Assembly: GCA_965204535.1 (NCBI GenBank)
Contig: CBDBEV010000001.1
Span: 2,048,001 to 2,112,000, forward strand
From: a bacterium
Lineage (GTDB): Bacteria; UBA8248
Length of the DNA stretch: 64,000 nucleotides
Reading direction: 5' to 3'
The position numbers and the translations under genes were made by a program. Positions 49,881 to 58,315 of the stretch are shown here, in pieces (within the stretch, counting starts at the first letter, position 1; each line of letters starts with the position of its first letter). The notes beneath the pieces were generated by a model that made no database searches, was not told the origin of the DNA, and worked only from the letters and a program-made list of their open reading frames with translations.

Positions 49881-50114
49881 GTTGTGGATTGCGCGCAGGC
49901 ATCGATCAGCTACAATGAAGGTGCTTGCGCGTCGTTTTGAACTCCGGTTGTGGATTGCGCGCAGGCATCGATCAGCTACAATCGTCTCATTGCCAGCCAC
50001 ATTTTCGATTGTGTTGTGGATTGCGCGCAGGCATCGATCAGCTACAATTAAGAAAGCATCTACGGAATTTACGTTGACGTTGTGGATTGCGCGCAGGCAT
50101 CGATCAGCTACAAT
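49881..50114 (+). CRISPR. Type II-C CRISPR array: 4 identical 36-bp repeats (GTTGTGGATTGCGCGCAGGCATCGATCAGCTACAAT) and 3 spacers of 30 bp
   Basis: Repeats at 49881, 49947, 50013 and 50079. The + orientation is inferred from complementarity to the tracrRNA anti-repeat and the GTTGT...GCTACAAT II-C pattern. Confidence 0.97.
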
Positions 50115-50203
50115 TGGTTCTCTCCAAGTGATTGAACCGATTGGGTCAAGGCTCCCGAAGACAGGTCGGAACAATGTGATCTGCTCGGGAGCCTTTTCCG
50201 TCG
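50115..50203. repeat. Duplicated copy of the cas2 3' end and trailer
   Basis: 50176-50203 is identical to 50923-50950 (28 bp), with further matches upstream (gattgaa, aaggctcccg). Confidence 0.85.
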
Positions 50204-50353
50204 TCCCATGAACTTCTCTCTGTAATGTTTAGCTGGGAAATTTGTTTCTCCGCACATCAAAATATGCGCTAAGTAGATTTGTTCTCATCACTTGTTTTCT
50301 ATGAAACGTAATGTATACTTAAATGGTGAAATCACATTAAATGGGCAATAGGC

Positions 50354-50439
50354 CATCCTTGGCGGGACTCGAACCCGCGAGGCTCGTCTAAGCCGCTAGC
50401 TTCCAAGGCTAGTGTGTATACCGATTCCACCACAGGGAT
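50354..50439 (-). tRNA. Non-canonical tRNA: long-variable-arm (Ser/Leu-type) body with UGG (Pro) anticodon
   Basis: Minus strand folds as ATCCCTG TG GTGGAATCGGTATACAC A CTAGC CTTGGAA GCTAG C GGCTT AGAC GAGCC TC GCGGG TTCGAGT CCCGC CAAGGAT G. Full cloverleaf with one acceptor mismatch; no encoded CCA. Confidence 0.85.
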
Positions 50440-50488
50440 AGCCGGTCGGGGGAGTGTTGCATCCCCGGCCTATTGCCTTGTCTTCAAT

Positions 50489-50700
50489 GACCCGTGGCGC
50501 GGGTAAAATCTATACCCTATTTACAGGGTTTAGGTTTGCTTCGCTTATGTGGATCAACCTGCACCGTTTTAGGCCCAGGTTTTTTGCCAGATCGAACTTG
50601 ACGCGGTTTTTTCTGACAATCAGCCATCGGTTTCTCCTTTCTCCTTCGGCCAATATCCGAAGGTGGTTAGAGTAACGGGAGGATTCCCGCGCCACGGGTC
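50489..50700. repeat. Perfect 15-bp inverted repeat enclosing the sORF
   Basis: gacccgtggcgcggg (50489-50503) / cccgcgccacgggtc (50686-50700). Confidence 0.9.
50517..50627 (-). CDS. 36-aa Lys/Pro-rich small protein MADCQKKPRQVRSGKKPGPKTVQVDPHKRSKPKPCK
   Basis: Manual translation; tandem SD AAGGAGAAAGGAG directly upstream of the ATG; below the ORF-track cutoff. Confidence 0.65.
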   Translation of the reverse strand: MADCQKKPRQVRSGKKPGPKTVQVDPHKRSKPKPCK

Positions 50701-50719: not shown

Positions 50720-50748
50720 AATATATATCACTTCTTGTAAGAAATCAA
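50720..50748 (-). promoter_or_regulatory. Sigma70-type promoter for the sORF-tRNA transcript, containing the putative Cas9 target site
   Basis: Minus strand TTGATT(50748-50743)-17 nt-TATATT(50725-50720); the spacer holds the 12-nt match at 50728-50739. Confidence 0.7.
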
Positions 50749-50765: not shown

Positions 50766-50794
50766 TTGCAAACAAATACCAATTCAACTAGATT
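50766..50794 (+). promoter_or_regulatory. Putative promoter for the crRNA-like RNA
   Basis: TTGCAA-17 nt-TAGATT, back-to-back with the minus-strand promoter; alternative -10 TACAAT at 50794-50799. Confidence 0.55.
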
Positions 50795-50799
50795 ACAAT

Positions 50800-50891
50800 T
50801 TATCGTTACAAGGTCACTTCTTGTAGTTGTGAATTGTAACGAGGCGTCGATCAGCTATGGGTCGATTCATTCTTACCGATTGAATCGACCC
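50800..50891 (+). ncRNA. Stand-alone crRNA-like RNA (spacer, degenerate repeat, hairpin); CreA/scaRNA-like
   Basis: Degenerate repeat GTTGTGAATTGTAACGAGGCGTCGATCAGCTATGGG at 50826-50861 (25/36 identical to the array repeat). It is preceded by TCACTTCTTGTA (50814-50825) and followed by an 11-bp hairpin (50859-50869/50881-50891). Confidence 0.75.
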
Positions 50892-50912
50892 GTCGAAGGC
50901 TCCCGGGACGGA

Positions 50913-51242
50913 TCAGAACAGCGTGATCTGCTCGGGAGCCTTTTCCGTCGCCTTGCGGATCTTCCCGTAGAAAATCTTCATCCGCGAGAACTGCTTGTCG
51001 GTGAAAAGCAGAAGCCGCACCTCCCCGTCCGGGGGAAGCGCGGCGTTGATGCGCCGCTCGTGCACCTCAGCGTTCTCGGAACTCGGGCAATGCCGGGCGT
51101 AGACGGAATACTGGAGCATCGTGAACCCGTCTTCGAGCAGGGAGCCGCGAAACTCCTGGTAGGCCTTGCGCGCCGCCTTCGTGTCCGTCGGCAGATCGAA
51201 CATCACCATGAGCCACATGCTGCGCCACCCCCCGAAGCTCAT
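50913..51242 (-). CDS. cas2: CRISPR-associated endoribonuclease Cas2
   Basis: MWLMVMFDLPT, FRGSLLEDGFTMLQYSVYAR, TDKQF, EQITLF. Confidence 0.97.
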   Translation of the reverse strand: MSFGGWRSMWLMVMFDLPTDTKAARKAYQEFRGSLLEDGFTMLQYSVYARHCPSSENAEVHERRINAALPPDGEVRLLLFTDKQFSRMKIFYGKIRKATEKAPEQITLF

Positions 51243-52132
51243 GGCCGGGGGATTTCCGTCTCCTTCTCCTCCCCGCAGAGGACGCGGCGCACGCCCGCGG
51301 CGTAGTATTGAAGGGCGGTGAGAAGCGGATAGGTCTTTCCGCCGAAGCGCACCTCCTCGGCGAGCACGCCCAGGAGTTCGCGCTTTTCTTCTTTCTCCAG
51401 TTCGAGTTCCTCTCCCCAGAACTCCGGTTCATCCCGCATCCGGCGCACCCGGCGGTCCACCATCGGGCGGAGCGGCTCCATCAGGTCGTCCGCCAGGCAG
51501 AAACCGTCGTACTGGTTGTGGTGGTGCAGGCCGAAGGCGGGGTGCAGACCCGCCGCCACGACCGCCCGCGCCGTGGCCGCGCGGATGAGCGAATAGCCGT
51601 AGTTCAAGAGCCGGTTCACGCCCGGAAGCGCGCGGTTTCTTCTGAAATCCGGCCCGAACATCCTCGGCCAGTACATTCTCGCGGCGCGGGCTTCCGCCTG
51701 GGCGGGGTTTTCACGCCCCGCGCGCCCGGCGATGGCCCGGAGCGGTTCGCCGTATTCCTCGAAGGCGTCGAGCGCGTCGGCCTGGGCGAGAATCTTCGCG
51801 CGCACGACCGCCCGCCAGAGGCGGCTCATCCTGCCGGGGGTGGCGGCGGCCTGTTCCTTCACGATCTTGCTGTGCAGGGTGTGCCCGTCCAGCGGGAGCA
51901 GGACGGAGGCGGGCAGGTGCTTCTCGTCGCACATCACGACGGCGACGTTGTTCTTCATGCACTCCGACAGCAAGCCCTGGGAGGGGCGGATGGCCGGGTG
52001 ATCCAGAATCAGGACGCCGAGGTCCTCCACGGGGAGCGACTCTGCGGCGAACTCCTCCCGCTCCACTTTCAATTGCTTTCGGCTGAGCGAGAGACGGGCG
52101 GGACTTCCGATTTCGACGATTCGTTTAATCAT
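51239..52132 (-). CDS. cas1: Type II CRISPR-associated endonuclease Cas1
   Basis: EARAARMYWPRMFG..FRR, NRLLNYGY, GLHH.NQY..FCLADDLMEPLRP. Confidence 0.97.
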   Translation of the reverse strand: MIKRIVEIGSPARLSLSRKQLKVEREEFAAESLPVEDLGVLILDHPAIRPSQGLLSECMKNNVAVVMCDEKHLPASVLLPLDGHTLHSKIVKEQAAATPGRMSRLWRAVVRAKILAQADALDAFEEYGEPLRAIAGRAGRENPAQAEARAARMYWPRMFGPDFRRNRALPGVNRLLNYGYSLIRAATARAVVAAGLHPAFGLHHHNQYDGFCLADDLMEPLRPMVDRRVRRMRDEPEFWGEELELEKEEKRELLGVLAEEVRFGGKTYPLLTALQYYAAGVRRVLCGEEKETEIPRP

Positions 52133-55085
52133 GGGCGGCCTCCAGGTTTCCCAGGGGATCGACGGACATCTTGCGTCCCCTGAGCGTGTTGGGGGATGTG
52201 ATCAAGCGTGTCGTATTGTCATCCAAGAAAGCGGCCGTATGGGCCCGCAGCGTAATTACTTGTCGTTTCCCTATGGCTGAAATAAGTTGAACGCGGTAAA
52301 GATCGCAGCCGTTCTCCGGCACATCGAGTTTCACCAGATCGTTGATGGAAAGCGACATCACGAACCGCTGGCCCTCTTCGCAATCCCGCCGGACAACGGG
52401 AGTCCGCGCACGCCGGGCGCGCCGGGCCGCTTCCATGGCCGAGACGACGCGGCCCGCGCGCCTGCCCGTCTCTATGTTCTCGATGATCTCGATGTGGTGA
52501 TTGTTCCCCAATGCGTAGTACTTGAAGGGTTTTTCTTCCCCTTCTCTCTTGACGCCGAACAATCCATTCGGGTTCAGGTTCTCGGCGACGCGCACCGTCT
52601 CGATTCGCGTTCTGCCCGTTCCCTTGTTTGAATGCTCCAGATAGAGCGGCTTTGCGAAGGCACCCTTGGTCTTTTCACCGTGAGCCTTCATACGCTCTTC
52701 GATCAACGCCCGGATGCGAGGGTCGACGATTTTTTCCACCTGCTTCGTCGTGAGCGATTCGAGGGAGACTCTTCGGACGAAAACGTCCTCTCCATCGTGC
52801 GAGATGCGCCCGTAGGCGGTCTCCTCGTGAAAGGCCCCGCTTATCTTCCTGAGCGGCTGGTGGGAGACGACGATTTTCTCTATCCTCTCCCGAACCTCGG
52901 CATCGAATCCGGGCCAGGGCGGCGGCAACGGAAAACGCCTCTTGCCCAGAATCTCCCGCGACTCTGCGGAAAGATTCGCGATGGAATAAAACAACTTCCG
53001 GTTCGTGAGAGCGACGACCAGCGCGTCGACTGCGTGGTGGCGATGGTCGGCGCGGTTTTTCTCCATGTCCGAATCGTCGGCCAGAATCGAGTTCAGCCCC
53101 CAGGAGCGGCGCAGGGCGGCGGTGGCCTGTCCCGTCGTCACTTCAATGGTTGTGTCGAGGTGCCCGAGATAATCCCTCACCTCGCGGCTGATGTAGCGCG
53201 TGTCGTTGAGCTGGCGTTCGATGAACTTGTCCACCTCGATTTCTTTCTGATCGAAGCGCCTTTTCTTCGTGTAAGGCATCTCCTTCATGGAGAAAACGCG
53301 CTGGCGCATGTCGGAGTCGCCTCCCTTCCATTCATGAGGCGTTTTGTCCCCCTTCTCCCGGTTGGCCGAAGCCAGGGAGAGCACCTTGTTCATGTAGGAA
53401 TCATCGAGCGTCCGGCTGTAGGGGAGAATGTGATCCACCTCGTATGCCGCGCTGAAGATATCTCGACAGCCGATGCTCGCGCCCGTGTAGGGGCATTGGC
53501 CCTTCTGCTCTTTCCACAGCCGGTATCTGAGTCTGTTCCCCCCGTTGTCGGAAACCCCCACCTCCGCTATCACTTTGCGCGCCTCGTCGTTCAGGTCCTG
53601 GTTCTTCCTGTTCTGAGTGTTGAGCTTTATTTTTTGCTTTTGGCCGAGCTTTAAGTCCCGCGCGAGTTCCACGCGGATGCGCGCGGGCTTCCCGTGTTTT
53701 CGAATGACGGCGTTCACCACCTTCCGCACCTCGTTGATCGCTTTCTGGACGATGGGGTTTCTAAGATCCGGGGCGGGCGGAAGCGCGTCCTTCGCGTCGA
53801 TTCGTTTTTGATCCTCGCGCAAATAGCCCGCCGCCTGATAGGCGTCGTGGTAATTCTTCCCCTGCTCCAAGTAGGGCGTAATTCTGCGAATCGCCCGGAG
53901 GGAAAGGTGGGAGTAGCCCGGTTGAAATTCCGTGTTCAAGAAAGCATCCGCCTGATCGTGCGAGAGCTCCCAATGCTCCGTCAGCCGCTTTAGAAGAGTC
54001 TCTTCCTTATGGGTGCTGAACAACTCATCCAGAAACTCTTCCTGCTTGCTCACCGGCATGGCCTCCCACGCCTTTTTCGTGAGGATTTTCCGGACGTCGA
54101 CGAGCGTACGCGCGCCCATCAGGTTCTTCTTCCCGCCCTCTTCGATGTTGAAGGTCTCGCGAGAGTGCAAACCGAGCGCCTTGCGAGCGCCGTTCCAGGT
54201 GAGCGTTTTCTTCTCCCGAAGCTGTTTCTTGATGACTTCTCTTTCGTCTTGTCCGAGCTGTCGATACCCTCCTGTTTCGGGGACTCTGACTTCGAGATTG
54301 TTCACGTCCTGAAGGGTTCGGAACCATTGCGCCTCCGGTCGGCACCAGGGGCATCGCTTCTTGTGCGGCTCGAAGGTGCATTTTCCGACGAGATTCTTCT
54401 GGAGTTTCAGGGGACGCTGGAAGAACAGGATTTTGCGAATCCGCGCGCGGAGCGCATCGGTGAGCAAATCGGGCTTGAACTCCGCCTGCTTACTCCAGAG
54501 TCTGTCGAACTCCTCCTCGTACATAACGCGCTCCGTGCGGCGGTTCCTCTTCTTGGGCTGGTCGGCCAGAAACTCACCCAGCGTGCGGGAGTGCGACTGC
54601 TCGATTTCCCTCCTGAGCTCTCCGATCTCCTGCTTGACGACGCCGTCCTCTTTTTTCTTTTCCCCGGAATCGCGCACCTTGCGGTTGCTGAGGAATCCAC
54701 GCCTCTGGTTCAGGTGGAAAAGGGCGCGCCCGAACTCGTGGGGAGTCAATTCATTGTCCAGCCCCCGCTTTCTGATCTCGTAGGGGTCGGCGCGGTGGAA
54801 CAACTCCTCCCGATCGTGTTCGTTCTCCGGCATAAGCTCGCACCGAATGAGTTCGCTTTGAAGGGTGTCGCGGCGCATCTTCCGCCTGAAACGCTGGCGG
54901 CGGGCCTGGCGGGCGTCGCGCCGCTTGTGGTTCTTGGGGGTCTTCTTCTGCCTGTCGACCATTTCCTGAAACACGCGGACGCCGATTGCTTCGATGCCCT
55001 GCGGATCGCCGGCTTCGTCCTCTTCGACGAGCGCCCAGCCGATGGAATTCGGGCCCAGATCGAGGCCCAACGTAAGATGGCGCAT
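52125..55085 (-). CDS. cas9: Type II-C Cas9, 986 aa
   Basis: RuvC-I LGLDLGPNSIGWA, Arg-rich bridge helix, RRGF, NPIVQKA/RVELAR, HNH DHILPYSR..DDSYMNKVL....NREK, RQLNDTRY, RuvC-III HHAVDA; no csn2 or cas4. Confidence 0.97.
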   Translation of the reverse strand: MRHLTLGLDLGPNSIGWALVEEDEAGDPQGIEAIGVRVFQEMVDRQKKTPKNHKRRDARQARRQRFRRKMRRDTLQSELIRCELMPENEHDREELFHRADPYEIRKRGLDNELTPHEFGRALFHLNQRRGFLSNRKVRDSGEKKKEDGVVKQEIGELRREIEQSHSRTLGEFLADQPKKRNRRTERVMYEEEFDRLWSKQAEFKPDLLTDALRARIRKILFFQRPLKLQKNLVGKCTFEPHKKRCPWCRPEAQWFRTLQDVNNLEVRVPETGGYRQLGQDEREVIKKQLREKKTLTWNGARKALGLHSRETFNIEEGGKKNLMGARTLVDVRKILTKKAWEAMPVSKQEEFLDELFSTHKEETLLKRLTEHWELSHDQADAFLNTEFQPGYSHLSLRAIRRITPYLEQGKNYHDAYQAAGYLREDQKRIDAKDALPPAPDLRNPIVQKAINEVRKVVNAVIRKHGKPARIRVELARDLKLGQKQKIKLNTQNRKNQDLNDEARKVIAEVGVSDNGGNRLRYRLWKEQKGQCPYTGASIGCRDIFSAAYEVDHILPYSRTLDDSYMNKVLSLASANREKGDKTPHEWKGGDSDMRQRVFSMKEMPYTKKRRFDQKEIEVDKFIERQLNDTRYISREVRDYLGHLDTTIEVTTGQATAALRRSWGLNSILADDSDMEKNRADHRHHAVDALVVALTNRKLFYSIANLSAESREILGKRRFPLPPPWPGFDAEVRERIEKIVVSHQPLRKISGAFHEETAYGRISHDGEDVFVRRVSLESLTTKQVEKIVDPRIRALIEERMKAHGEKTKGAFAKPLYLEHSNKGTGRTRIETVRVAENLNPNGLFGVKREGEEKPFKYYALGNNHHIEIIENIETGRRAGRVVSAMEAARRARRARTPVVRRDCEEGQRFVMSLSINDLVKLDVPENGCDLYRVQLISAIGKRQVITLRAHTAAFLDDNTTRLITSPNTLRGRKMSVDPLGNLEAAHD

Positions 55086-55135: not shown

Positions 55136-55270
55136 ATTATAGCTGATCGATGCCTGCGTTGCTTTTCATAACAAGAAGATTTCGTAACGAATTCTTCGCA
55201 GGCAATTCCCCGGAACGGGGAAACGACCTAACCCTCGCGACGCCTCGGCCTCTCCGGGGGTTCATTTTTT
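55136..55270 (+). ncRNA. tracrRNA
   Basis: Anti-repeat ATTATAGCTGATCGATGCCTGCGTTGCTTTTCATAAC (55136-55172), then AAG, hairpins (gaagatttcg..cgaattcttc; ttcccc..ggggaa) and a T run; divergent from cas9. Confidence 0.88.
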
Positions 55271-55423
55271 GTTGCGCCCCCTCGTTGGCCCCGACTTGCT
55301 CGCCGAGGTCGAGTGCATCGCCGCGTTGCCCGACTGAGCACGCCCGACTACACTCCCACCCGCCAATTTGTATATGTTTTCATCCGCCCGTTCTGATGAT
55401 GCGCGCGACGAAGGAGACACCAC

Positions 55424-56283: not shown

Positions 56284-56371
56284 GTATTTTCAACAATTGA
56301 TGAAAAAATAAATTAAGTGAAATATATTGACAATTTCATTAAATATGGTATTTTCATCAAATGATGAAATA
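56284..56371. promoter_or_regulatory. Two imperfect palindromic operators flanking a TTGACA promoter
   Basis: gtattttcaacaattgatgaaaa (56284) and gtattttcatcaaatgatgaaata (56348); TTGACA at 56327-56332. Confidence 0.6.
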
Positions 56372-57470
56372 TGATGAAAAATTGAAAGGACAAGATATTG
56401 AGTTTGTCGACGCTGTGCGCGATCTTCTCGAACATGTACCGCATGTGGAAGTTGGTCGGGTTGACTATGCTTCCAATATAGGACGCGAATATCAAATAGA
56501 TTTAAAGATCGGTCTAAGTCGTGACGGGGTAAATTATGAACTCATCATAGAAATGAAATCGAATGGGGCGCCACAGTTTGTGCGCTCCGCGATCTATCAA
56601 CTTAACAGCTATGTTGCGCATTCACTTCAATTTAGACACGCGGATGACAGCCGTCGTTTGATTCCGATGGTTGTCAGCCCCTACCTATCCCCGGAGTCGC
56701 GCGCAATCTGCAAAGCTCACAATGTCGCTTATCTCGATCTTTTCGGGAACGCGCATCTCACTTTCGATAGTGTCTATATTGATCGGGCCGTTGCAGGTAA
56801 GCCGAAGTCCGAAACCCGTGCTCTGCGGTCGATTTTCACCCCGAAGGCAGGCGCTATCCTGCGCGTTATGCTGCGTGATCCGGGCCGCGCATGGCGTGTC
56901 GCAAACTTGGCTGAAACAGCCAATACAAGCCTTGGTCATGTGAGCAATGTTCGCAAAGCTTTATTCGAGCGTGAATGGATCAAACAACAGGACGACGGCG
57001 GAGTCCTTGCCAAGCCGGACGCGCTGCTGAAAACCTGGCGAGAGAATTATCGCCGCCCGTCCGGTCATCGCATCACCGGATACACGCATCTCCACGGTGA
57101 GCAGCTTGAAAAGCGGCTGTTGGGAGCACTTAATTCGTATCCACAGAACCCCCGCGCGATCTACTCATTCCATTCCGCCGCCCAATGGATCGCACCTTAT
57201 GGCCGAGACGGCACATATAATTTCTATTCGGACGAGACAGGTGTTCAAACCTTGACTGAGGCATTGCGACTGGCGTCTGTTGCAAAAGGATCGAATGTCG
57301 TCATTCGTGTTCTCAAGGATGAGAGTCTGTTCGACGACGCGATCGAACCTAGGCCGGATATTTTCTGCACCAGCCCAATCGTCACGTATTTTGATTTGTG
57401 GAATGGCAATGACCGAGACCGTGAAGCTGCCGAGTATATAGCAAGGGAGTCCTTCCCGTGGCTAGAATAG
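56361..57470 (+). CDS. Type IV TA AbiEi-like antitoxin/transcriptional regulator
   Basis: PYLSPESRAIC....YLDLFGN, central wHTH (WRVANLAETANTSLGHVS), C-terminal SPIVTYFDL....RDREAAE; overlaps the downstream NTase gene. Confidence 0.72.
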   Translation: MMKYDEKLKGQDIEFVDAVRDLLEHVPHVEVGRVDYASNIGREYQIDLKIGLSRDGVNYELIIEMKSNGAPQFVRSAIYQLNSYVAHSLQFRHADDSRRLIPMVVSPYLSPESRAICKAHNVAYLDLFGNAHLTFDSVYIDRAVAGKPKSETRALRSIFTPKAGAILRVMLRDPGRAWRVANLAETANTSLGHVSNVRKALFEREWIKQQDDGGVLAKPDALLKTWRENYRRPSGHRITGYTHLHGEQLEKRLLGALNSYPQNPRAIYSFHSAAQWIAPYGRDGTYNFYSDETGVQTLTEALRLASVAKGSNVVIRVLKDESLFDDAIEPRPDIFCTSPIVTYFDLWNGNDRDREAAEYIARESFPWLE

Positions 57471-58315
57471 AACAGCGGTTCGCCCATGATTATGATTTTC
57501 GTTCCACTGCGGCGGTCAAGTCCGTATTGATCGAGATCGGACAGATCCTGGGTAGTTTCCAGGGCAAGTTCGTGGTGATCGGGGGCGCCGTTCCCTGGCT
57601 GTTGCCGAGCGAATCCAATATGTCCCATGTTGGCACTCTAGACGTGGATCTGTGTCTCGACGCCGAGGCCCTTGGCGATCGGGAATACGCCCGGCTCGTC
57701 AAATCCCTTCAGAGGCAGGGTTACAATCAGGACGAAAATTTTCGCCCCTTTCAGCTTATGCGTAACGTGCCTTCTCAAGACGGCGGGGCTGACATCAATG
57801 TCGTCGTGGATTTTCTCATGCCGCGCGGAGTCGAGATAGCGAAGAACATCCCGCCGCTTGTCAGCGAGTTCGCCGTACAGCGCGCCGACGGCGGTGACCT
57901 TGCGCTTAGATTCTACGAGGTGGTCCCCATCGAGGGCGAAATGCCCGGCGGTGGCCGCAATCGCGTGCATATTGCCGTGGCGTCGATCCCGGCGCTGTTG
58001 GCCATGAAAGGATACGCCATCGCCAATCGTTTGAAACAAAAAGACGCCTATGACATTTACTTCTCCGTCCGCAACTTTCTAGGCGGGCTGGACGCTCTCG
58101 TCGAAGCAACGAAGCCGCTCCTCGAAGTCGATTCGGCGCGAGAAGGCTATCGTTTGCTCTCGGAAAAATTCCGCAACGTGGATGATTTCGGTCCGACCAG
58201 CGTGCGGCAATTCTTGGAAGGTTCCGACGCGCTCGGCGAGCGCACTGCGGATCAATGGCAACAGGACGCCTTCGGTCAAGTCGACGCATGGCTCAAAGGA
58301 CTTGGCTTGAGGTAA
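57458..58315 (+). CDS. AbiEii-like nucleotidyltransferase toxin
   Basis: VVIGGAVP, HVGTLDVDL, LLAMK, KQKDAYDI. Confidence 0.75.
   Translation: MARIEQRFAHDYDFRSTAAVKSVLIEIGQILGSFQGKFVVIGGAVPWLLPSESNMSHVGTLDVDLCLDAEALGDREYARLVKSLQRQGYNQDENFRPFQLMRNVPSQDGGADINVVVDFLMPRGVEIAKNIPPLVSEFAVQRADGGDLALRFYEVVPIEGEMPGGGRNRVHIAVASIPALLAMKGYAIANRLKQKDAYDIYFSVRNFLGGLDALVEATKPLLEVDSAREGYRLLSEKFRNVDDFGPTSVRQFLEGSDALGERTADQWQQDAFGQVDAWLKGLGLR

Follow-up and report, generated by a model that had tools for sequence, protein, structure and literature searches.

In the CreTA and CrePA systems (types I-B and I-F), a degenerate repeat within the cas locus gives rise to a crRNA-like guide, which acts through a short PAM-proximal match on the promoter of a nearby small gene. 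The toxins described for them are tRNA-sequestering mini-ORF RNAs, the protein CreP, and Pro-codon RNAs; a 2026 preprint, in its accessible part, gives three toxin classes, none of which is a tRNA (10.64898/2026.06.02.729485). Repression without cutting is also described for Cas9, i.e., for the scaRNA of Francisella novicida (type II-B), a standalone repeat-like RNA, and for the tracr-L of Streptococcus pyogenes (type II-A), which use guides of around 11–13 nt against a lipoprotein gene or the cas9 promoter. On the other hand, natural tRNAs with mismatched body and anticodon have been found toxic in E. coli (PMC5389517; PMC10404621). Among these, allo-tRNAs (Mukai et al. 2017, PMC5389517) are defined by a 12-bp acceptor branch, arranged 8/4 or 9/3, and a Sec-like D arm, and irregular 7/5 tRNAs in polycistrons are mentioned in the same paper. 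The tRNA-ProX of Streptomyces, which has a dedicated synthetase, ProRSx, is a dual-identity, mistranslating tRNA with a Pro body, a short variable arm, and a non-Pro anticodon; the word CRISPR is absent from the accessible parts of the papers on it (PMC10404621, PMC11415595). We also draw on PMC7609411, PMC12737573, 10.1101/2023.03.03.530964, 10.1101/2024.01.05.574328, and 10.64898/2026.06.01.729453.

In the literature surveyed (main texts, with few subscription papers among them), we found no tRNA gene among the toxins that CRISPR represses, no Cas9-based CreTA, and no family of mismatched tRNAs built on a Leu body. The supplements of PMC5389517, for its irregular 7/5 tRNAs, and of a survey of repeat-like RNAs may list such tRNAs or loci. 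Here, we describe a tRNA gene for which we tentatively propose such a role.

In the stretch of 64,000 nt analysed here (the window), ARAGORN calls a single tRNA, a tRNA-Pro(tgg) at 50351-50440 on the minus strand, and the Rfam model RF00005 matches 50354-50439 with 52.8 bits (E 1.7e-8). The features are:

50354..50439, minus strand: class II tRNA with Leu-type body, UGG anticodon, G73, and no encoded CCA (ARAGORN, Rfam, host-tRNA comparison)
50353-50440, minus strand: 8-bp acceptor alternative of the tRNA (fold comparison)
50441..50470, minus strand: GC-rich hairpin directly 5' of the tRNA; one also precedes the two other G73 tRNAs

The preliminary description had drawn this gene as a class II cloverleaf with a proline anticodon, and its account of the structure holds in every detail: the anticodon loop reads CU-UGG-AA, with the anticodon at 50403-50405 and A37 after it; the variable arm, of 17 nt, has a stem of five pairs, one of them G.U; the class II D arm, the A1-U72 pair, and G73 are all present; and the alternative acceptor of 8 bp can form, with a U.G pair on top and a G-C-C end. 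We noted three further oddities, i.e., a C5.A68 mismatch, A15.C48 replacing A15:U48, and the lack of an encoded CCA. Apart from C5.A68, all the stems pair. Free folding does not recover the cloverleaf (z 0.24), as is common for tRNAs. The 8-bp fold has some comparative support, three G73 tRNAs sharing an 8-nt 5' strand that starts with U, and likewise an unpaired C6 and a leader hairpin. An assembly error in the anticodon, a risk raised beforehand, is not borne out as far as contigs from four public runs show: three of the runs, which come from two samples and may be the source, each hold one 857-nt contig without any difference across the tRNA, and there is none either in a 151-nt contig from the fourth run, which belongs to another study and spans 50375-50525, including the anticodon.

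The mismatch between body and anticodon is also supported. The window tRNA lacks the bacterial tRNA-Pro features C1-G72, A73, G37, G15-C48, and a short variable loop, and the anticodon alone fits. It could be read as an extra functional tRNA-Pro, or as the sign of a codon reassignment in the host, and ARAGORN does label it Pro, by its anticodon; yet the host genome already holds canonical tRNA-Pro(UGG), (CGG), and (GGG), and the gene has a match in only one of 22 congeners, with another anticodon, which makes this reading barely credible. The body had been presented as Ser/Leu-type, of which the Leu part stands and the Ser part does not. Indeed, with the anticodon loop left out, it is 58–68% identical to the five host tRNA-Leu (68% and 67% for the two closest), 51–55% to the four tRNA-Ser, and 46–49% to the three tRNA-Pro. 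The geometry of the D loop and of the variable arm is Leu-type, and the D arm is nearly identical to that of the host tRNA-Leu(GAG).

How such a tRNA would be charged is a distinct question. In E. coli, according to PMC9976931, Leu identity involves A73, A15-U48, G18G19, and A20a, the first two being the main determinants; Ser identity involves the long arm, G73 in vivo, and the acceptor pairs G1-C72 and G2-C71; and neither LeuRS nor SerRS reads the anticodon. From the Leu set, the window tRNA has G18G19, A20a in the D loop, and a variable arm like that of host tRNA-Leu, with G73 replacing A73 and C48 instead of U48. From the Ser set, it has the long arm and G73, the two features that would favor serine charging; it lacks G1-C72, G2-C71, C11-G24, and the Ser arm orientation, which all four host tRNA-Ser possess. 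Since the Pro determinants are missing, charging with proline is very unlikely, which leaves serine, leucine, or no charging. Judging from these features, serine, which had been predicted, would be the foremost though doubtful candidate, no charging at all somewhat less probable, leucine unlikely, and any other amino acid more unlikely still. As two Leu determinants and most of the Ser ones are missing, this copy may be decayed. However, the G73, U-starting 8-nt 5' strand, and unpaired C6 common to three tRNAs look like the marks of a subfamily rather than of decay, and C5.A68 is also found in the closest homolog (L133). Relatives carrying A73 would likely be charged with leucine. In the host genome, we found a single SerRS and a single LeuRS, together with one CCA/poly(A)-type nucleotidyltransferase, and CCA and CCG make up 2.6% of the codons in its long ORFs.

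A kinship with allo-tRNAs, which had been suggested, is not borne out. The long arm, G73 (where allo-tRNAs have G73/U73), the conflict between anticodon and identity, the GCG and GUC anticodons among relatives, and the links to toxin-antitoxin genes and mobile DNA are all reminiscent of them, as would be toxicity upon expression. But the T stem has 5 bp and the acceptor 7 or 8, i.e., a 7/5 or 8/5 branch instead of one of 12 bp, and the D arm is Leu-type, without the long stem and tetraloop of the Sec-like one. In contrast to tRNA-ProX, the mismatch runs in the opposite direction.

The first reading had considered the tRNA outside its context, which is that of a CRISPR-Cas9 locus, where the tRNA is part of an insert that separates cas2 from the array:

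49881..50114, plus strand: CRISPR array, 4 repeats of 36 nt and 3 spacers of 30 nt
50826..50861, plus strand: solo degenerate repeat, 11/36 differences, still pairing with the tracrRNA
50862..50950, plus strand: second copy of the array trailer hairpins (first copy 50115-50203), overlapping the 3' end of cas2
50913..51242, minus strand: cas2
51239..52132, minus strand: cas1, NMENI (type II) subtype
52125..55085, minus strand: compact Cas9 of 986 aa, with RuvC and HNH motifs
55136..55271, plus strand: tracrRNA, with its anti-repeat from 55136 and a terminator-like end near 55271

This Cas9 falls short of the type II-D (Cas9d) model NF049971, with 172 bits against a cut-off of 375, and scores 701 bits with TIGR01865; its Cas1 is of the NMENI type, and we take it to be II-C-like. 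As in CreTA, the cas locus contains a degenerate repeat that should be able to load the effector: its computed duplex with the tracrRNA reaches -52.0 kcal/mol, versus -53.1 kcal/mol for an array repeat. A natural single-guide RNA, made of the solo repeat and the hairpins downstream, was considered and set aside: the anti-repeat is located upstream of cas9, and these hairpins belong to the array trailer, also present in congeners. Near the solo repeat, an inverted repeat at 50793-50839 could fold the 5' end of a guide transcript onto its seed and repeat, and positions 50791-50796 are similar to the 3' end of the repeat, suggesting a worn mini-array.

Just before the solo repeat lies a short sequence which recurs within the insert, in a predicted promoter directed toward a small ORF and the tRNA:

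50814..50825, plus strand: 12-nt guide seed of a crRNA-like (CreA/scaRNA-like) RNA, identical to the target
50728..50739, plus strand: predicted target of Cas9, with the -35 and -10 boxes on either side (next 8 nt identical in G007)
50720..50748, minus strand: predicted sigma70 promoter, 9/12 consensus, 17-nt spacer
50517..50627, minus strand: 36-aa ORF, rich in Pro, Lys, and Arg, with a strong SD; unnamed peptide family, candidate second toxin
50490..50699, minus strand: 14-bp inverted repeat (50490-50503, 50686-50699) enclosing the SD and the ORF; also in G007

Guide and target are identical over 12/12 nt, where 1.1e-4 such matches are expected by chance, and the guide 12-mer has one other copy in the genome. 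The promoter is the only such site in 1.9 kb for 1.2 expected, hence at chance level when taken alone; it points away from the cas genes, toward the array. As in CreTA, the match is thus partial, on the seed side, and situated in the promoter of a small gene close by, and our assignment of the cassette to this mode of action is a prediction from sequence. The guide being separate from the tracrRNA, this is not a tracr-L; and, where scaRNA and tracr-L act on a lipoprotein gene or on cas9, the target here would be a predicted toxin cassette within the locus itself. The flank of the target is conserved but overlaps the -35 box, and no credible protospacer from which to read a PAM was found for 201 spacers compared with the host genome and the collected loci, or for an array of 77 spacers compared with 51 genomes. 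From the promoter, the order is the 36-aa ORF inside the 14-bp stem, then the hairpin, then the tRNA, with one weak terminator-like hairpin on the way, overlapping the end of the ORF. We consider it highly probable that the Cas9 guide represses this promoter, and probable that the ORF and the tRNA are co-transcribed.

Comparison within the genus shows how the insert behaves. An orthologous Cas9 (73–82%) occurs in six of the 22 genomes, and in five of these six loci the insert is absent, the trailer running straight to cas2 over 94–95 nt, versus 842 nt in the window. In G007, the insert measures 687 nt in the same way and keeps the guide, a 13-nt target match, the 8-nt flank, and the ORF (around 80% identical), without the tRNA. 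Its ORF and promoter are inverted, the SD and enclosing stem are kept, and the -35 box and target are conserved. From this pattern, we conclude that the cassette corresponds to the insert and that guide and target are under selection. A search for a tRNA remnant in G007 yielded a 12/13-nt match that 167 of 5000 shuffles also reach, and which is only suggestive.

The peptide has its own distribution. Its family comprises nine representatives at E values up to 0.001, usually preceded by a strong SD and with one invariant Pro; no real Pfam family matches it, its Atlas matches, all ≤0.80, are leads only, and a cluster look-up returns "hypothetical protein" alone. Among 82 viral and metagenomic loci encoding the peptide, 71 have no called tRNA, and no cas gene was found, whether by Cas9/Cas1/Cas2 tblastn (a weak screen, which missed the class 1 loci described below) or by Pfam scanning of 49 neighbours, and no array-like repeats appeared; Rfam matches nothing in the 20 of these loci submitted to it. 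The enclosing stem is found at 26 of 49 loci, versus 17.9 in controls, and is thus weak as a family trait. A third version of this unit, enclosing stem included, lies on an 859-nt contig from another study.

As G007 keeps guide, target, and peptide without the tRNA, the peptide by itself can suffice for the guide to be maintained, and it may be toxic on its own. Hence, the module could be repressed by Cas9 with the peptide or its structured mRNA as toxin, the tRNA being a decayed, uncharged passenger. The conservation of SD, ORF, and stem in G007, the many peptide loci without a tRNA, and the A1-U72, C5.A68, A15.C48, G73, and missing CCA of the tRNA all agree with this, and the known CreT RNAs likewise combine an SD, a mini-ORF, and a hairpin, one class having Pro codons. 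We nevertheless regard it as rather unlikely: the other stems of the tRNA pair, its Rfam score is that of a 52.8-bit match, several of its oddities recur in L133 or in the two other G73 tRNAs, and four class 1 loci target such tRNAs without such a peptide.

Peptide and tRNA might also work as a pair: either the UGG tRNA would recode the peptide at its Pro codons and temper it, or the release of the tRNA would be gated by translation of the ORF. At 11 of the 82 peptide loci, all from one phage lineage, a long-arm tRNA(UGG) with A73 follows the ORF at 53 nt and is 64% (56/87) identical to the window tRNA, and the invariant Pro of the peptide would suit such a link. But the association is limited to two lineages, both parts occur alone, and a chance meeting is not remote since UGG is the anticodon of 5 of the 40 tRNAs in the family described next, so that we find a functional pair distinctly improbable. 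At two of the loci (L178, L217), a tRNA-like gene with a CUA (amber) anticodon lies 149 nt after the peptide ORF, behind the UGG tRNA.

We then considered the window tRNA as a member of a family. A scan of one genome per species for a Leu-type D arm combined with a non-A35 anticodon gave 86 stretches, of which 38 were kept by hand; with two from the host genome, this makes 40 rows. The 48 dropped stretches were mostly, in our own reading, intron-split tRNA-Leu-like genes, remnants, and short-arm tRNAs, with one near-duplicate, one truncated, and three having unusual or very long arms. A15, the lack of C11, and the non-Leu anticodon are imposed by the scan pattern and are not findings. The 40 rows carry 15 anticodons; U48 is found in 39, A73 in 35, Leu arm geometry in 34, and six or more pairs in the acceptor, some of them covarying, in 35. 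The window tRNA is the sole one with C48 and one of three with G73. Of 70 neighbouring proteins, five are IS1595 transposases; SocA/Panacea antitoxins, TumE, and restriction and helicase genes also occur nearby. An antisense promoter acting as antitoxin was rejected as a family trait (4/41, for 2.5 expected). Plasmid and phage collections gave no match, and pattern scans of viral sequences returned 2 and 21 stretches, Cas9, Cas1, Cas2, and the peptide being absent from the 21.

Several members deserve mention for themselves. In the host genome, a second Leu-body tRNA, with a GCG anticodon, G73, and the same D arm (C2:1733066-1733157; L004, L005), lies between an SNF2 helicase (PADLOC HmaA) and small ORFs including a DUF2513 one, and no copy of the Cas9 repeat was found near it; a degenerate copy of tRNA-Leu(GAG) read as GCG (C1:919698-919781) looks like an integration-site remnant. 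In L100, a long-arm UGG tRNA stands just upstream of a UUA one, a mismatched tandem beside a SocA/Panacea antitoxin gene. In Patescibacteria (L060, L079, L122, L125, L130, L134), Leu-body tRNAs have CCA, GUA, or UGU anticodons and often adjoin restriction-modification or Schlafen helicase genes.

PADLOC was applied to 190 of 219 long ORFs at 39 loci, namely 35 of the 38 kept (the remaining three were too short) and four of those dropped. It placed cas genes at four of the 35 kept loci, three of type I-G (L099, L114, L138) and one of type I-E (L113), the other 31 having none within 4 kb. All four have a degenerate CreA-like repeat on the strand opposite to the tRNA, with a spacer matching a site 70–79 nt upstream of it. 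The matches cover 18/20, 18/20, 19/20, and 13/15 scored positions, every sixth being ignored and the scoring lengths having been chosen after viewing the matches; the best match elsewhere reaches 11–13, and each score is attained by none of 2000 shuffles. Mismatches fall at 6, 12, 18, and 24, positions that Cascade does not read, and the flanks (TTA, TTC, TTA, AAT) fit the PAMs of types I-G and I-E. The target in L113 overlaps a predicted promoter (8/12), while promoters score just 6/12 in the I-G loci. Window included, the five CRISPR-linked members of the family thus all have a guide aimed upstream of the tRNA; no second Cas9 locus with a mismatched Leu-body tRNA was found among the loci examined. 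The four class 1 tRNAs differ in anticodon (GUA, AGA, CCA, UUA) and keep A73. The three I-G ones are 74–85% alike and may share one origin; the five together are 61–85% alike, perhaps indicating three origins. We found no KPGPKTV peptide at the three I-G loci or at L113. At L138, the end of the cas operon faces the tRNA, and no other gene comes after the tRNA on its strand. The promoter targeted in L099 could also serve cas4/1, and a gene for a TumE toxin lies downstream on the tRNA strand in L113; at these two loci, the other genes could be the regulated ones.

Since IS1595 often lies beside both the tRNAs and the peptides (8 of 49 peptide neighbours), a common pool of cargo may account in part for the co-location. 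In the extreme case, the insert would be neutral mobile cargo with nothing toxic in it, and the guide would merely silence antisense transcription into the array, toward which the promoter is indeed aimed; the five congeners without insert fit such a view. It leaves unexplained, however, the guides directed at the same tRNA class in types I-G and I-E, with other layouts, as well as the kept cloverleaf, the covarying acceptor pairs, and the changing anticodons, and we judge it improbable.

The reading that we prefer for the window, with confidence a little short of even, is that of a CRISPR-repressed toxin-antitoxin cassette, CreTA-like, with Cas9 as effector and a miscoding Leu-body tRNA gene as toxin. 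The correspondence of guide and target, which the first reading had not seen, speaks indirectly for the toxic mistranslator proposed there, though its charging is a prediction and this copy may be decayed. Cas9, with the tracrRNA and the 12-nt guide, would sit on the promoter and block it without cutting, as 12 nt is within the range reported for repression by tracr-L and scaRNA. If Cas9 were lost or inhibited, peptide and tRNA would be released, transcription presumably reading through past the 36-aa ORF into the tRNA, over about 270 nt, and the tRNA would be processed and receive its CCA. Once charged, it would put the wrong amino acid at CCA and CCG codons; growth would be slowed or stopped, as with allo-tRNAs and tRNA-ProX in E. 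coli, and the loss of cas genes as well as anti-CRISPR phages would be punished. Granted repression and co-transcription, we put an active, toxic tRNA copy at somewhat to clearly better than even. The claim for the class is stronger than that for the window copy: we think it slightly favored that three or more CRISPR-Cas types, Cas9, I-G, and I-E among them, have recruited a mobile family of tRNAs, with a Leu body and a swapped anticodon, to act as addiction toxins.

If this is true, a tRNA that makes decoding unfaithful would be freed once cas genes are lost or a phage brings an anti-CRISPR, with missense at the codons for Pro, Tyr, Ser, or Trp, or read-through of UAA, and cell and phage would be stopped together. 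The toxins repressed by CRISPR would thereby gain a new class, a tRNA gene, and would extend to Cas9, I-G, and I-E systems, with Cas9 itself running a CreTA system. It would also offer natural mismatched tRNAs, reported so far with no role known in their hosts, that of programmed mistranslation as a dead-man switch of defence. In annotations, Leu-body mismatched tRNAs stay hidden, being named after their anticodon like ordinary ones; natural ochre and amber anticodons occur in the family and are of interest to code engineering.

Other elements of the host genome are worth recording. Solo copies of the Cas9 repeat lie far from cas genes at C1:732869, C2:480311, and C2:468814 (4, 5, and 11 differences), with similar ones in G010, G023, G041, and G043, possibly further guides or RNA anti-CRISPRs. 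A second, distant Cas9 locus at C1:199-205 kb (L002, L006) has near-identical cas1 and cas2, a different repeat, and, before cas1, a leftover tracrRNA-like anti-repeat of the window type; its array occurs a second time at the beginning of C2 (C2:1.7-4.5 kb), possibly through an assembly overlap. Divergent tRNA calls for Val, Ser (short arm), and Phe cluster at C2:2515268-2519391, perhaps in a mobile element. Finally, near cas9 in the window, two genes at 56361-58315 encode proteins of 369 and 285 aa without NCBIfam match, presumably a pair resembling a type IV toxin-antitoxin system (AbiE-like).
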